Notes under the pieces: generated by a model
Told to the model about the DNA's origin: nothing
Seen by the model: the letters and a program-made list of their open reading frames with translations, nothing else
The model's database searches: none
Shown here: positions 6,439 through 44,282 of the stretch, in pieces
How the letters are laid out: each line of letters starts with the position of its first letter
Position numbering within the stretch: position 1 is the first letter of the stretch
Program-made: the position numbers and the translations under genes
NCBI GenBank assembly: GCA_036490175.1
Contig: DASXEJ010000088.1
Location: 1 to 64,000, forward strand
DNA length: 64,000 bases
Direction: 5' to 3'
Source: Pirellulales bacterium
GTDB lineage: Bacteria > Planctomycetota > Planctomycetia > Pirellulales > JACPPG01

Positions 6439-8649
6439 CTACTGCTGGTCCTTCGTGCCGGATTGCACCGATTCGATGACCTGCTTCGTCATCCGCGCGG
6501 CGAAATCTTTGAACTCCACCGTCGCCGGATCATTCGCCTCGGACTGAAAGCCCGATTTCTCAGCCACTAGCAGGCTGATCAACAGCCCCAGCAACCCCGT
6601 CGCCTGACCAGAGGGGGCTGCGCTCGCGCCATCTCCGCCGGCGACAAAAACGCGTTCCGGCACCAGCGGCTGCGTGCTCTTGGACAACTGCTCGGCCAAG
6701 AGCGACATGGCATATAGCCGTGGATCGCGATACGAGGCGATGCGCTGGAACAAAACTGCCGCCTCCGACAGACCCACGTGCGCGATCCGCTGCGCTTCGC
6801 CTCGGCCAGCCAGCTCGCGCTGACGGGCGTCGGCTTCGGCCAGCACGATGGTTTGCTCGGCCTGTCGTCGCGAGCGCGACAACTCGCCGTCCGAGACCAC
6901 GACCACCTGCTCGGCCTGCTTGCGGGCACGTGCCAGGTCGGCTTCTCCATGGCTTTCCGAAATCTGAATCTGCACTCGGGCGTTCGTCAACTCGGTTTGC
7001 ATATTGGCCTGGGCCTGCGACTCGTTAAGGATCCGCAGCTTGTCAGCCGCGGCCCGCTGGCGCTCGTAGGTCTCTAGTTGCTCGAACGATAACTGGCGTT
7101 GCCGTAGCTGTTCGAGCAGCGTCTCGATCTTCAGATCCCCCTTCTCCGAATCGGGCTTGCCGATCAAGACATCGACGCATTCGATGTCAAATTCGCGAAA
7201 CCTCTTGCGCAGCACTTCGCGGGCTTCGGCCTGGATCTCATCGCGCTCGTGCAACAGGGCAAGCATGGTCTTCTTATGCGCCACATCGCGAAAGAAAGCC
7301 GAGAGCATCGGATCGAGCGTCTGAGTGATCAGTCGCTTAACGTCGCCGAAACGCTGGATGACGCTCGGCGCCCGCTGATAGTCGATATGCACGACGACCG
7401 ACAGCGGCAACAACGGTTCGTAGGCATCCTTCGTCACCAAATCGATCGATCGCAGACTCTCGTCGTAACGATGCGATTCACTCTTGCCCGTGATCCAGTG
7501 CAATACGAAGTTCGTCGTGGGCACCAACACGATGCTGCCGGCGAAGGTATTAAATGGGTATTTTCCGGGGCCTAGAGGCCGCTCCCACACACCGCGCTCT
7601 CCTTCGGCCACCCGCTCACCGTGACGGAAGGCATCGCCCGAAACGTCCGTTCCCTGGCGACCGTAATAGCTAACCACCACGCCGACATAGCCGATCGGCA
7701 CCACGGTCTTGGGAATCAACTCGACCGCTGCAAACCAACGGTTGATAAAGTACGTGCCGTCGGTCAGTGGCAGGTACTGACGACCGCGCCGGCCGCCGGC
7801 CCGCAACATGGCCTCGGGATCCTGATAGTTGTTGTGATAATTCTCATCGGCCGGATCGGTACCGACCGCCGGTGCGATGATTTCTCCCGGCGCAAGGGAC
7901 GGTCCGTCATGCACTGTGACAATGCCGATGCTATCGACTTCTTCGACACTGTCGGGGTCGAGCGGATGAGGCGTGGGCAACGGACGCCCGACGATGACCG
8001 GCTCGAAACCGTCGATTTCGAGCAGATCTTCCCGCCACTTGGCCACGATCTGCACTTCCTGCGGGTCCATCAAATGCCGCAGCGCATGAACCCGTGCTTC
8101 GGTAATGACGATAAAGGTCGCCGCGTTGATGGCGTACACACCTTCACGCAGAATGGCGCGCTGGCGACCACGCTGACCGTGCGAATCGTTCCCTGATCCG
8201 TTGCCGGCCAGGAACCGTCGTGCGTCTTGAAAGTAATTGCAGTCCACGATTCGCCCCAACGTCTGTCCCGACGAAAGCGGGGCTCCGTCGCGGGCGTAGA
8301 CGTAGCCGATCTTGCCCTGAGCGATCGTCACCAGTCTCGATTTATGGATACGGTATTGCCACCGCCAATAACCGAAGTGGATGCCACCGCGCAGCAATTC
8401 GGCCTGATAGCCGGCCTCGCGCCCTAGCGCCACGATGCGTCCCTCGGGCACCGATCCGGCCGCCGACCATAGCTTCTCGACGATGCCTACCCGATCGTTG
8501 GGAATAAAACGCAGCGTCAGCCAAGAGAACAGCAACAGCGCCGCGAATACTGCCAGCACGATCAAACCTACCCCCGTCCACCCCTGAAGTAATGAACCCG
8601 CAGTAACAGCAAACAGAACTTCCGACCCACCAATCACCCAGGTAGTCAT
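6439..8649 (-). CDS. Flotillin-like SPFH/band-7 domain protein (YqiK/FloA-like) with a long EA-rich coiled coil
   Basis: N-terminal TM segments are followed by an SPFH-like region and a long charged coiled coil (EAREVLRKRFREFD...ELTNARVQIQISESHGEADLARARKQAEQ). Likely start is MTTWVIGG at 8647-8649, with AAGGAT 6 nt upstream. Confidence 0.8.
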   Translation of the reverse strand: MTTWVIGGSEVLFAVTAGSLLQGWTGVGLIVLAVFAALLLFSWLTLRFIPNDRVGIVEKLWSAAGSVPEGRIVALGREAGYQAELLRGGIHFGYWRWQYRIHKSRLVTIAQGKIGYVYARDGAPLSSGQTLGRIVDCNYFQDARRFLAGNGSGNDSHGQRGRQRAILREGVYAINAATFIVITEARVHALRHLMDPQEVQIVAKWREDLLEIDGFEPVIVGRPLPTPHPLDPDSVEEVDSIGIVTVHDGPSLAPGEIIAPAVGTDPADENYHNNYQDPEAMLRAGGRRGRQYLPLTDGTYFINRWFAAVELIPKTVVPIGYVGVVVSYYGRQGTDVSGDAFRHGERVAEGERGVWERPLGPGKYPFNTFAGSIVLVPTTNFVLHWITGKSESHRYDESLRSIDLVTKDAYEPLLPLSVVVHIDYQRAPSVIQRFGDVKRLITQTLDPMLSAFFRDVAHKKTMLALLHERDEIQAEAREVLRKRFREFDIECVDVLIGKPDSEKGDLKIETLLEQLRQRQLSFEQLETYERQRAAADKLRILNESQAQANMQTELTNARVQIQISESHGEADLARARKQAEQVVVVSDGELSRSRRQAEQTIVLAEADARQRELAGRGEAQRIAHVGLSEAAVLFQRIASYRDPRLYAMSLLAEQLSKSTQPLVPERVFVAGGDGASAAPSGQATGLLGLLISLLVAEKSGFQSEANDPATVEFKDFAARMTKQVIESVQSGTKDQQ

Positions 8650-9386
8650 GTGCCCGATCCTTGTTTTGTCTGTGCTGTGCGTTCGACGCCTGAGGGCTCT
8701 GCACCCTGCGTTAAGCACTACTTTTCCCAACAAGCCACGATTTGCAGGGCTGGTACTCTGCCGCGCAGACACACCCCTGCCGAGCATCACCGGCGATCAT
8801 AGATCGCGCGCGAACGCAATCCAGCCGATCAATCGTGGAGATGGGTTAAGTAGTCCCTGCACCCGTGAGAGCCTGCCGAACAAGCGCGCAGCCAGAATTG
8901 GATACACGCCAGAACACCGAGAGGATGCGCTCACCGTCTACGCAAAAGACGAGAAAGTGTCCTTTCAACGCTTGGCCGGGATCACATCTCCCGGCGGGCC
9001 TACGAGGTTAGCTGTCGGGCTAGGGCTTGAAAGTGCCCTGGTTCGCAATCAGGCGAACCTGCGCCCCGTGAAATCAGGCCAGAATCAAAACTGGCAGCCT
9101 GATTTCGTTTGGGTCCCCCGCTACCGCGTCTGGCGACGCGTTATTAGGCTACACACTGTAATTATACAATGCCGCCGAAGGTCAACAATCTTTCGCGCTC
9201 CCGATTCGATCGCAACTCGAATCAGCGCTTCGAGATTGGTTTCGTTTCCTGTTACCACCCGAGTGGTGTCGAGTGACGAACGTTCCGTAAAGGCATCGAA
9301 GTTTCAGGAACGTGTTCGCGACGTTCCTACTGTTTGTATCGCACAAAGAAGAGTTCGCGACGCATTGCACCTTTTGAGGGACCATC

Positions 9387-40655: not shown

Positions 40656-41399
40656 ATGGTGAACTTCGACGCGGTCATCGTTAGCGATTTGCACTTGGGC
40701 GCGCGCAACAGGCGGGGTAATGACTTCCTGCGTTTCCTGCACACGATTCGATGACAGCGATTGGTCCTGGCCGGCGACTTGTTCAACGATTCACGTCTAC
40801 GTGGATTGCAGGAGCGAGACGTGCAGATCGTGGAGTTGCTGAGACGGTACACTAAACACGTTCGCGTTGATTGGGTCGTCGGCAATCATGACCCGTCTCC
40901 AACCTGGTTCGCCGCGTTGCTGGGAATCGAGGCGCAAGAGGAAGTCATCTTGAACGTCGGTGCCGCGCAGTACCTGGTGTATCACGGGCACGGCTGGGAT
41001 CCTTCGCTTAGTTGGCCACAACTCGAAGTCGACACGGCGGACGCTGTTTACTTCGCGTGCCAATGGCTCGACTCTTCGCATCGTCTGGCGCGACGCCTTA
41101 AACGCACGTCAAAGCATTTCTTCCATGTGACCGATGTCCTCCGTCGGCGAGCCATCGACGAAGCGCGCCTGCGAGGCGTGGCCGGTGTTATCCTGGGCCA
41201 CTCGCACCTGGCGTGTGACGTACGTAGCGCGGACGTTCACTATTTGAACTGCGGATGCTGGACAGAAAAGCCTTTGTCGTTTGTTGGCATCTCGGGCTCG
41301 ACAGCGCGAGTTTACGATTGGGATCCTGTGGCACGTACGCCGCTGCCGCGCAGTCTGACGCCGCTTGATGCCGAGACACTTCTGAATTCCTGTGCCTAG
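40656..41399 (+). pseudogene. LpxH-family metallophosphoesterase (UDP-2,3-diacylglucosamine diphosphatase-like) interrupted by an in-frame TGA at codon 33 (40752..40754)
   Basis: ATG at 40656 gives MVNFDAVIVSDLHLGARNRRGNDFLRFLHTIR, then TGA, then the same frame continues QRLVLAGDLFND...VVGNHD...GHSHLACD. The D-x-H, G-D-x-x-D and G-N-H-D calcineurin-like motifs are split across the stop, and the N-terminus resembles LpxH (DLHL...FLRFL...GDLF). Confidence 0.6.
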
Positions 41400-41968
41400 C
41401 GTTCGGCAACGAGACACAAATTACCGCGATCAGGGGAAGGAATTCGACGGGTGATTCGTATTCCAGCGCCTCCTGGATGCCTTGTCCGTCAGGCCCGGCG
41501 GCGCCGTCGCGGGGCGTCCTCCTCTATTTTTCCCATACTGCGCCAACGGACTCCTAGGGCGCCAATGTCACGCACCCCTTTTGCCTAAACGGGGCAAGAT
41601 TTTCGAAAAACCTTATTTCTTAAAAAAGCGTCATGGTGGGTCAACGTACAGCCCACGATGAGGGGTTTTTCATGGGGCCAGTGTGATCACACCCTCCGAG
41701 GTGTGGAGTGAGAGCAGCGCAAAAGCCTTGAAGTGAACACCCCTTACGATAATTGCGTCCATCGCACAGTTCCTTCGCGTCTCGGCGATATCCGTTGCAT
41801 CTTGCGCGCCATAAATGGCTGCCGCGCTGGCGGGCTTGCGACGGCGCGGCTGCCTTGGTGGTTGACGACGAGGATCAAATCTATACCGTGGCACCAAGCA
41901 CTCTACGGGGGATGAAACCCTAGCGCGTCGGGGTTGGAGGACGCGCGCTTCAATGAGGAGTCCTCGTG

Positions 41969-42094
41969 ATGAAGAAGTTCACTGCTATTTGTGCCCTGCT
42001 GTTGGTTCTCGCCATGGCCGTTCAAGCCGACGCTGGTTTGCGCCGTTGCCGTGGCGGCAAGTGTGGCAAGGCTGCCTGCGGCGCGTGCAAGTAA
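41969..42094 (+). CDS. Small secreted cysteine-rich cationic peptide (41 aa precursor; predicted 21-aa mature peptide with 4 Cys)
   Basis: GAGGAG lies 8 nt upstream of the ATG. The product is MKKFTAICALLLVLAMAVQA|DAGLRRCRGGKCGKAACGACK, a Sec signal peptide with a VQA cleavage motif. An intrinsic-terminator-like hairpin follows 18 nt after the stop. The ORF is below the 60-aa cutoff of the supplied ORF track. Confidence 0.5.
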   Translation: MKKFTAICALLLVLAMAVQADAGLRRCRGGKCGKAACGACK

Positions 42095-42109
42095 AGCACT
42101 CGCGCATGC

Positions 42110-42152
42110 CCTGTGCGATCCGGTTGGATCGCGGCGTTCGTGCCGCGATCCA
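42110..42152 (+). terminator. Rho-independent-terminator-like hairpin (14-bp perfect GC-rich stem, 6-nt loop, then a TTTT run)
   Basis: ccGGTTGGATCGCGGCgttcgtGCCGCGATCCAACCcggTTTTcg, read directly from the sequence. Confidence 0.5.
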
Positions 42153-42758
42153 ACCCGGTTTTCGCCCAGGCGCGATCAGCATGCGACGGACCCCTCTGAG
42201 GCGCAGCTCTTGTGCCATTTCGGTCGCTTGAGTTGCAGGCCCACCACAGTCGCTGCTGGGACCCGGTCCCAGAATCCCGATCGCCGAGGCTCCGTGCACC
42301 ATCCCAGGCGAGTGGCCCGCCACCAGGGTCTTTGTTCGAGGCTGGGCACGCCTTGACGGCTTGTGGCGGGCAATTCCTGGCCCCCGTAGCGCCCCAGGCT
42401 ATATCGTCCCACCTGGGCCCACCGGGCCGAAACGCCTAAGAGAGGTCTAAGCTTGCCCACCGCTCACGCGGCACGACCACGCGAAGCGGTGTTAACCCCC
42501 TTGCGGATGGCGTACTTACCACCGAACGAGGATTGCCAACCCGGCCCGCGATGGGCTAGAATCCTGGTTTTCGCCCAAGTTGGCCTACGGCTACCTCTAA
42601 TGCTCGCCCCGGCTGCTGGTTCCGGCCAGCGTCGACGGGTCAGGCACGTATGGTAGGAGTGCGCCAAAACCCCGCTGGGCCAGCGGCGGGGGATGGGCCG
42701 TGGGTTTGCGCGCGGGGCAAGCCCCGTCGTTTGTTCGTTCACACGTAAGAGATCGCGA

Positions 42759-44282
42759 ATGTTCGAGTCGTTGCAAGATGGCCTCAGTTCGGCGCTGCGG
42801 ACTCTGAGCGGGAAAGCCCGGCTCACTGAGTCCAACATGCGCGACGGGCTGCGCCTGGTGCAACAGTCGCTGCTCGAGGCCGACGTCAGCTTTCCGGTCG
42901 TCAAGCAGTTCATGGACCGAGTCAGCGAGCAGGCCGTAGGGGAACAAGTCCTCAAGAGCCTCCGCCCCGACCAACAAGTAGTAGGCATCGTCTACAACGA
43001 GTTGGTCAATCTGATGGGTCCGGTCGACCATTCGCTGCACCTCAAGCCCGATTTGACCGTGCTGATGATGTGCGGTCTGCAAGGCTCGGGCAAAACGACG
43101 ACCTGCGGCAAGTTAGCGCGCCTGTTGATCGAGCGTGGCCGTAAACCAATGCTCGTTGCGGCGGACTTACAGCGTCCCGCGGCCGTTCACCAATTGCAGG
43201 TACTCGGCGAACAGATCGGCGCACCGGTTTACGTGGAAGAGGGTGCGAGCGATCCCGTGGCCGTCTGCCAGAATGCGCTCAAACAAGCCAAATCCCAAGG
43301 CGCCGAGGTTCTGATCTTGGACACGGCCGGCCGTCTGCACATCGACGAAGAGTTGATGCAGCAGCTGCAGCGTATCGATCGCCGGGTCAATCCCGATCAG
43401 GTTTACCTGGTGGTCGACGCCATGACCGGCCAGGACGCCGTCAATAGCGCGAAGGCCTTTAACGAGGCGCTCGAGCTCGACGGCTGTATTATGACCAAGC
43501 TCGATGGCGACGCCCGCGGCGGCGCAGCCCTGAGCGTAAAGGCCGTCACCGGCGTGCCGCTGAAATTCATGGGAACGGGCGAGCATTTGGACGCGCTCGA
43601 AGAGTTCCACCCAGACCGCATGGCCAGCCGTATCCTGGGCATGGGGGACGTGCTGACACTTGTCGAGCAGGCGCAGCAAAAGTTCGACCAGGACGAAATG
43701 CAGGAGCAGGAGGAACGGCTCCGCCGCGGAGAGTTCACTCTGGACGACTTCCGCAAACAGCTCAGCCAGATTGGCCGCCTCGGCCCTCTGAACAAGGTAA
43801 TGGGTCTGATCCCCGGCATGGGCGGCCTACAAAAAATGATGGGGGATGCCGACGCCGACGGCGACATGAAGCGCCTGGTCGGCATTATCGATTCGATGAC
43901 CGCCGAGGAACGTCGCAACCCTTCCAAAACGATCGACCAAAGTCGCCGACGCCGCATCGCCGTGGGCGCCGGCGTCGAACCGGCCGAAGTCAATCAGCTG
44001 GTCAAGCAGTTCGACGGCATGGCCGACATCATGAAGCGGATGGCCGGCATGGGAATCCGCGAACGGATGCGGGAGGTGCAGCAACTGCAGCGAGGTGGCT
44101 TCCTCGACCCAGGTTCGTCATTGGCTCGACAGAAAAAAGGCACCGGCAAGCGCCTTTCCGCCCAGGAACGCACCAACCTGAAAAAACAACGCGAGAAGGA
44201 AATGCGGCGACGCAAACGGGATGGCAAGCGAGAGCGCGGCGGCAGTAGTCCGGAGCAGAACGGAAATCCGCGAGGCTTTTAG
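42759..44282 (+). CDS. ffh: Signal recognition particle protein Ffh (SRP54) with a basic C-terminal extension
   Basis: N domain, G domain ([30 protein letters not shown]), and an M domain with a Met-rich segment ([14 protein letters not shown]). Confidence 0.9.

Follow-up and report, generated by a model that had tools for sequence, protein, structure and literature searches.

A conserved 41-codon gene of Pirellulales encoding a small basic peptide with a predicted signal sequence

Does a reading frame of only 41 codons, lying alone in a long intergenic region of a Pirellulales genome, encode a genuine protein and, if so, what could this protein do? The window that we analyzed (a 64,000-nt stretch of contig DASXEJ010000088.1) carries such an ORF on its forward strand: a CDS of 41 codons followed by TAA (41969–42094), whose product reads MKKFTAICALLLVLAMAVQADAGLRRCRGGKCGKAACGACK. 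Codons 1–20 (41969–42028, forward strand) are predicted to encode the signal peptide MKKFTAICALLLVLAMAVQA and codons 21–41 (42029–42091, forward strand) the mature peptide DAGLRRCRGGKCGKAACGACK. The initial annotation described a 41-aa ORF with a Shine-Dalgarno sequence, GAGGAG, 8 nt 5′ of the ATG (41955–41960, forward strand) and long non-coding flanks. Both descriptions held: the ATG and the Shine-Dalgarno sequence are conserved in the homologues, and the flanks measure 569 nt to the stop of a metallophosphoesterase gene at 41399 and 664 nt to the start of ffh at 42759. An in-frame GTG at 41966 is not kept in the alignment of the homologous loci, and we therefore placed the start at ATG 41969. 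The peptide is already present in NCBI as the hypothetical protein VGG64_06285 of a Pirellulales MAG, and the gene is thus annotated. We found no paralogue of this single-copy gene within the window, nor any other small ORF there whose product has both a signal peptide and Cys residues. A search for tRNA and tmRNA genes gave no match.

The comparison of homologous sequences shows that this 41-codon ORF is a genuine coding gene under purifying selection. Seven independent metagenome contigs encode the identical peptide, in each case with the metallophosphoesterase gene on one side and ffh on the other. In a diverged strain (contigs L001 and L006), all five substitutions in the ORF are synonymous, an outcome with P ~0.001–0.005 under random mutation, and the intergenic DNA that flanks the ORF in this strain presents many substitutions and indels. 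The peptide is unchanged between strains at dS ~0.2. Among 8 homologous genes, the differences concentrate at third codon positions and pairwise dN/dS ranges from 0 to 0.34 (dS of 0.2–2.0 over 28 conserved alignable codons). Across about 12 variants, the ATG, the Shine-Dalgarno sequence and the reading frame are all kept, and indels are always multiples of three. Every homologue presents a Shine-Dalgarno sequence, GAGGAG being replaced by GGGAGG in L010 and by GGAGGAG in L017.

We further analyzed the distribution of the family. Besides the query, an exhaustive phmmer search against 1.8 billion representatives yielded a single true relative of 44 aa (P0003); the two top matches, P0002 and P0004, were rejected as artefacts that translate repeats. 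Profile searches added P0005–P0013, and a DNA-pattern scan with the conserved 5′-UTR motif added one new locus (L016). A scan of genome contigs with the peptide profile recovered only the already known L010 contig, and a peptide-pattern scan of metagenomes gave no match. In total, the family comprises about 12 distinct peptides of 41–55 aa (after removal of mis-called N-terminal extensions), all of them from MAGs or metagenomes of Pirellulales/Planctomycetia, which indicates that it is restricted to Pirellulales-like planctomycetes. Searches of Pfam, NCBIfam and PDB with the precursor, the mature peptide and the homologues yielded only sub-threshold noise: the weak Pfam matches, Defensin_propep (E = 0.14) and Fungus-induced (E = 0.11), lie far below threshold and cover the signal peptide, and the sole NCBIfam match, PRK10040 (E = 0.014), reaches 15.5 bits against a cutoff of 118. 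A full-text literature search on the RRCRGGxC motif and on small Cys-rich proteins of planctomycetes found nothing relevant. The family is best filed as previously uncharacterised, within the well-known class of small Cys peptides that bear a signal peptide.

The members share a common architecture, in which a signal peptide of about 20 residues (MKKF-AA-CA-LLVLAM-VQA) is followed by D/E/Q-A, the basic core RRCRGG[K/R/G/S]C and a variable tail. One type of tail is rich in Cys, Ala and Pro and ends in CxxCK (the window peptide, P0006, P0009 and L016, which has 8 Cys), and the other is acidic and AVSVEP-like (P0005, P0007, P0008 and P0010–13). The four-Cys framework C-x4-C-x4-C-x2-C proposed initially is not a feature of the family. 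Indeed, the homologues contain 2, 4, 5, 7 or 8 Cys (4–8 in the CxxCK-tail subgroup) with variable spacing and unalignable tails, and the first C-x4-C (CRGGKC) is the only near-universal spacing. L016 additionally carries CRRCH and CH motifs. P0005 possesses only two Cys, as do the doubtful relatives P0014 and P0016. P0014 (MKRIFTIAVVLFSIVALFADNADAARRRRRCRGGRCGAQVEVPVELTR, L018 2423–2569) presents an RRCRGGRC core, and its locus lies in a run of small same-strand genes and lacks the conserved promoter and 5′-UTR hairpin; it may represent a distant homologue or a convergent motif.

The ORF, a promoter-like block, a 5′-UTR hairpin and a terminator hairpin travel together into three genomic contexts: behind a metallophosphoesterase gene, beside a Tricorn-type protease gene and beside a Legionella_OMP gene. 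The unit follows the metallophosphoesterase gene in the window, L001, L008, L012, L013, L019 and L020; it adjoins the Tricorn-type gene in L010 and is surrounded by unrelated genes in L017. Depending on the lineage, the downstream gene is ffh, SRAP, Exo_endo_phos or Legionella_OMP, and since these genes differ between lineages the unit is autonomous rather than a leader of ffh. This comparison of loci upholds the description of a standalone monocistronic gene with a strong ribosome-binding site and its own terminator. Within about 8–10 kb in six contexts, the called neighbors belong solely to housekeeping or otherwise unrelated Pfam families (ABC/FtsX, PSP1, Metallophos, SRP54, S16, TrmD, L19, SRAP, RND and Tricorn), and none of the called genes encodes RiPP modification, dedicated export or immunity functions. 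The earlier argument against a RiPP, drawn from the absence of adjacent modification or export genes, therefore stands across these neighborhoods.

The neighboring genes present several features of their own. Within the otherwise divergent spacer between the peptide gene and ffh, a block at 42480–42640 (forward strand) is strongly conserved between the window and L001 and contains a promoter-like site, TTGCCA-18-TAGAAT (42533–42562, forward strand), which is likely the promoter of ffh and would leave this gene a leader of about 200 nt. The metallophosphoesterase gene of the window (40656–41399, forward strand) is interrupted at codon 33 by an in-frame TGA (40752–40754), as it is in L002 and L003. 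At that site, the strain L001 (8681–9424) has TGC (Cys), but its frame is interrupted independently by a TAG 13 codons farther on, at a position occupied by TCA (Ser) in the window. The reading frame of the interrupted genes is otherwise fully preserved, and the orthologues of L008, L012, L019 and L020 are intact (247–258 aa); this looks like independent recent pseudogenisation in two sister strains, or possibly recoding. The best NCBIfam matches of this gene, PdeM and then LpxH-type, are weak and far below cutoff. Just past the terminator of the peptide gene (window position ~42171–42178), L003 (2230–2337) and L004 carry a 100-bp insertion flanked by the 8-bp direct repeat ATGCGACG, which looks like a small mobile element with its target-site duplication. 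Elsewhere in the window, we detected a c-di-AMP riboswitch of the ydaO/yuaA type (8983–9160, reverse strand; 62 bits, E = 5e-12) upstream of a long minus-strand ORF (6439–8790, up to 783 aa), whose product, judged by eye, looks like an SPFH/flotillin-type membrane protein.

Upstream of the peptide gene, the promoter-like block GGTGGTTGACG-N16-TACCGT (41857–41889, forward strand) comprises a −35 element TTGACG (41862–41867, forward strand) and a −10 element TACCGT (41884–41889, forward strand), and would place the transcription start near 41897. The sequence GGTGGTTGAC is invariant in the 9 lineages with the Metallophos or Tricorn context whose contigs reach this position. The block takes the form GGTGGTTGAC(G/A)-N16-TA(C/A)(C/G)GT with a conserved 16-nt spacer, and TACCGTGG is kept even in the distant L017. 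The block is the putative promoter of the peptide gene. A sigma-70 scan made no call at the block, whose −10 element matches at 3 of 6 positions. By eye, we also tried sigma-54 (TGGCAC-N5-TTGC) and ECF (GAAC-N17-CGT) readings and rejected them as inconsistent across homologues.

The 5′ UTR contains a hairpin that is unique in the window, GCGCGTC-GGGGTTGGAG-GACGCGC (41923–41946, forward strand), with a 7-bp stem and a G-rich 10-nt loop. Across 11 lineages, 97% of the cells of the stem alignment are paired, and L017 keeps a 5-bp core. We observed one compensatory change from G-C to A-U (L020) and three one-sided transitions; because the latter all give G.U on the forward strand, an RNA structure fits better than a DNA palindrome, with modest statistics and modest covariation. 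Two further proposals for this region were rejected: sequestration of the Shine-Dalgarno sequence is predicted in the window sequence only (z = −1.7), and a CCCC:GGGG pseudoknot with the hairpin loop, drawn by eye, is unsupported in L017 and L019. Farther upstream lies a conserved non-coding element (41635–41746, forward strand) composed of a G/C hairpin and three forward-strand motifs: GGGGTTTTT (41662–41670), the perfect 12-bp palindrome GTGTGATCACAC (41681–41692) and the conserved box TGAAGYGAAMACCCCTTA (TTGAAGTGAACACCCCTTA; 41728–41746). It is unique in the window, occurs once per locus and is missing in L010 and L017, which are more distant. The distance of the box to the peptide ATG is nearly fixed (box end at −219 to −223 in the loci of eight lineages), GGGTTTT starts at −287 to −317 from the ATG (−304 to −307 in five loci), and the distance of the element to the preceding gene varies in the metallophosphoesterase-linked lineages. 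Its alifold consensus structure is weak, with an invariant closing helix. The element could be a regulator-binding region or a structured RNA. We searched Rfam with 41380–42780 at gathering and permissive thresholds and obtained no gathering-level match, the best being ryfA with 20.8 bits against a threshold of 80.

Downstream of the ORF, a small hairpin (42100–42118, forward strand) precedes a terminator hairpin of about 16 bp with one bulge (42120–42158, forward strand), followed by UUUU (42159–42162). The terminator stem includes a perfect 14-bp inverted repeat (42122–42135 and 42142–42155) with a 6-nt loop. The perfect 14-bp stem and T-run of the initial annotation are thus present, and only its distance of 18 nt from the stop departs slightly from our analysis: the large stem starts 25–27 nt past the stop, and 18 nt leads to GCGATCC at 42113, which is part of the small hairpin. 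The 72-nt 3′ region has an MFE of −40.4 kcal/mol (z = −5.3 relative to shuffled sequences). A simple terminator scan did not call the site because its T-run consists of only four T. L001 retains the stem of the window: a single C to U change in it gives G.U, and the other changes fall in the loop. Every homologue presents a GC hairpin of different sequence after the stop, in most cases with a T-run, and the 3′ flank of the gene is not conserved among distant homologues.

We then examined the features that bear on the fate of the precursor. By inspection of the sequence, the features of a Sec signal peptide claimed initially are present in the n-, h- and c-regions: the N-terminus consists of MKK, FTAICALLLVLAMAV with a hydrophobic core of about 15 residues, and V-Q-A before D. 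The −3/−1 pair is V/A, L/A or A/A in 12 of 12 members and the +1 residue is acidic or Gln. A lipoprotein was rejected as no lipobox was found: the only Cys of the N-terminal region, C8 in T-A-I-C, comes after 7 residues, and this position of the putative h-region has I/L/V at −1 and is occupied by F or G instead of C in L016 and P0010–13. Calculation confirms the net charge of about +5 given for the mature peptide of the window, which also has a pI of 9.6, 4 Cys among 21 residues, 5% bulky hydrophobic residues and an average mass of 2081.5 Da reduced or 2077.4 Da with two disulfides. Across the family, the net charge of the mature peptides ranges from +2 to +6 and their GRAVY between −0.08 and −1.04. 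They contain no aromatic residues and 0–17% bulky hydrophobic residues, and no Pfam, NCBIfam or PDB match was obtained; the suggested likeness to defensins or conotoxins did not survive these observations, and the composition differs equally from that of beta-hairpin antimicrobial peptides.

In our preferred reading, which we consider somewhat more probable than its negation, the gene is monocistronic and its precursor is Sec-exported and processed by signal peptidase I, which yields a basic peptide of about 2.1 kDa with disulfides. Transcription from the gene's own promoter-like block would give an mRNA of about 265 nt (~41897 to 42162) with a 5′ UTR of about 72 nt that contains the conserved hairpin, and the strong Shine-Dalgarno sequence would drive translation of the 41-aa precursor. 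The N-terminal 20 residues (the MKK n-region, the 15-residue core and the V-Q-A c-region) would act as the Sec signal. Targeting would have to be post-translational, given that the complete protein scarcely exceeds the length of the ribosomal exit tunnel. Signal peptidase I would cut after Ala20 and deliver the 21-residue, +5 peptide to the planctomycetal periplasm or to the exterior, where Cys would be oxidised, at minimum closing the CRGGKC loop. The functional core would be the basic RRCRGGxC common to the whole family, where we place the function because of its conservation; the tail would be lineage-specific, being in the window rich in Gly, Ala and Cys and ending in CxxCK. Most likely, the peptide would bind an anionic or thiophilic ligand, either at the envelope or extracellularly, such as envelope polymers, the surface of another cell or metal ions, rather than lyse membranes in the classical manner. 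We consider lysis doubtful because hydrophobic residues are scarce, a metal cluster common to all members doubtful because no more than two Cys are conserved, and a classical bacteriocin doubtful because the gene is single-copy, vertically inherited and not accompanied by an immunity gene. The cleavage site, like export, disulfide formation and activity, is a prediction from the sequence.

Several alternatives to this exported peptide need to be considered. The ORF could be no protein gene at all, but either a frame that arose by chance within a regulatory region or non-coding RNA, or a leader peptide/uORF with a regulatory effect on ffh. Its very short length, the extensive nucleotide conservation of the 5′ UTR and its position upstream of ffh in the window would fit, but substitutions are synonymous-only and at third positions, the ATG, Shine-Dalgarno sequence and frame are kept in about 12 variants, no Rfam match was obtained, a strong terminator and the separate promoter-like site at 42533–42562 precede ffh, and the gene downstream is not ffh in relatives. 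The comparative data effectively refute this explanation, which we regard as extremely improbable. An arrest peptide regulating ffh was likewise rejected, 41 aa being too short for co-translational force sensing. Alternatively, the product could be an uncleaved small membrane protein, with a signal-anchor/TM helix and a cytoplasmic basic Cys tail, that regulates a membrane protein in the manner of MgrB or AcrZ or resembles a type I toxin, its translation being controlled via the conserved 5′ UTR. In E. coli, basic residues just past the cleavage site impair Sec translocation, and according to the positive-inside rule basic residues at this place would favor a C-terminus that stays in the cytoplasm. 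Clusters of basic charges do lie right past the hydrophobic segment: the first 12 mature residues carry a net charge of +3 to +7, and a neutral or acidic early mature region was not observed. This basic cluster, which disfavors Sec export, keeps the membrane protein under consideration and lowers our confidence in efficient export. The hydrophobic segment is also strongly conserved, about as much as the "mature" core, and might have a function of its own. From an alignment of 5 sequences, AlphaFold predicts residues 2–28 as one helix (pLDDT ~70), unbroken across the putative cleavage site, and an unstructured tail. The conserved 5′-UTR hairpin and the long intergenic region, common for type I toxins, would suit the toxin variant. 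On the other hand, the core spans only about 15 residues and is followed by a conserved V/L-x-A and then D/E/Q, as is typical of cleaved signal peptides. The gene is also single-copy in the window, its Cys-rich CxxC tails are atypical of type I toxins, and a repeat search of 41560–42180 revealed no antisense or divergent sRNA candidate, as no direct or inverted repeat there gives a conserved segment complementary to the UTR or the ORF. We therefore regard an uncleaved membrane protein as unlikely.

The two remaining alternatives retain export and differ in function. As a sub-case of the exported-peptide model, the product could be metallothionein-like, with Cys (and His in L016) binding Cu, Zn, Cd or Hg in the periplasm. 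Its composition (Cys, Gly, Ala, Lys/Arg and Pro, without aromatics) and its CxxC, C-x4-C and CxxCK motifs resemble those of metallothioneins, as do the variable Cys number of the CxxCK-tail subgroup and the CRRCH and CH motifs of L016. We nonetheless judge this reading quite unlikely: the two Cys of P0005 imply that metal clusters are not the function of the whole family, known bacterial metallothioneins are cytosolic, in the oxidising periplasm thiols are prone to pair into disulfides, and we found neither conserved metal-resistance genes in the neighborhood nor a Pfam metallothionein match. Alternatively, the peptide could serve in competition, as a bacteriocin or other antimicrobial peptide that is exported via Sec without modification. 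A short cationic peptide with Cys residues behind a signal peptide would suit such a role, and a conserved signal region with hypervariable C-terminal tails is indeed found in many precursors of toxins and antimicrobial peptides. Several observations nonetheless make an antimicrobial role very unlikely in our view. No immunity or export gene is adjacent. The gene occurs as a single copy in a conserved syntenic position, is passed on vertically and is neither mobile nor variable from strain to strain. Strains separated by a dS of ~0.2 have identical peptides, and the peptide lacks the hydrophobic or amphipathic residues that membrane activity would require.

To place the peptide among known systems, we compared it to those that we take to be its analogues: enterocin P and hiracin JM79; tachyplesin, protegrin, hepcidin, defensins and conotoxins; SmtA/BmtA and MymT; and MgrB, Hok and TisB. 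The Sec-dependent class II bacteriocins of Gram-positives (enterocin P, hiracin JM79) are likewise ribosomal and unmodified, with a Sec signal rather than a double-glycine leader and a small, cationic, disulfide-containing mature peptide (the disulfides being predicted here). In contrast, their mature peptides measure 40–50 aa, carry a YGNGV box, end in a hydrophobic or amphipathic stretch and are encoded next to an immunity gene, often on mobile DNA, whereas the planctomycete peptide has a predicted mature part of 21 aa, no immunity gene, no hydrophobic face and a conserved chromosomal position. We detected neither a YGNGV box nor a conserved small downstream ORF among the compared lineages, and Pfam and PDB searches revealed no sequence similarity to bacteriocins. 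Cationic disulfide host-defence peptides (tachyplesin, protegrin, hepcidin, defensins and conotoxins) share with the window peptide a size of about 20 aa, a charge of +5 and four Cys, as well as a conserved signal region with a variable mature end, but the present family is bacterial, has no pro-region, no conserved Cys framework (2–8 Cys) and no aromatic or bulky residues. Bacterial metallothioneins (SmtA/BmtA, MymT) are similarly small, rich in Cys, Gly, Ala and Lys, without aromatics and variable in Cys number; unlike the present peptides, they are cytosolic and lack a signal peptide, the two-Cys members described here cannot form thiolate clusters, and there is no homology. Finally, small membrane or periplasmic regulators and type I toxins (MgrB, Hok, TisB) also have fewer than 60 aa, an N-terminal hydrophobic helix, a standalone gene and a structured 5′ UTR, and MgrB also begins with MKKF and relies on periplasmic Cys, but here no antitoxin sRNA was detected and a signal-peptidase motif is conserved. 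The peptide gene resembles these four kinds of small proteins by architecture and largely lacks their testable defining features, with the composition of the window peptide fitting that of a metallothionein.

A more ambitious reading, to which we give little credence, is that the family represents a planctomycete-specific exported effector in which the RRCRGGxC disulfide loop would have a dedicated, hitherto undescribed function, together with a new cis-regulatory RNA/DNA module. The effector would be, for example, an exported metallothionein-like buffer of thiols or metals or a polycationic ligand of the unusual envelope of planctomycetes, and the module would consist of the 5′-UTR hairpin with its G-rich loop and the upstream GGGGTTTTT...GTGTGATCACAC...GTGAAGTGAACACCCCTTA at a fixed distance to the start codon. 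A Sec signal followed by a short basic Cys peptide is an architecture common among unannotated small ORFs, and nothing in the locus points to a new mechanism or to a long-standing question. Our comparative evidence documents a 41-codon ORF as a genuine gene and defines a family of small proteins that comes with its own promoter-like block, 5′-UTR hairpin and terminator. The predicted 21-mer is chemically simple and cheap to synthesise and assay, and the family belongs to the planctomycetes, which are poorly explored for small secreted peptides.
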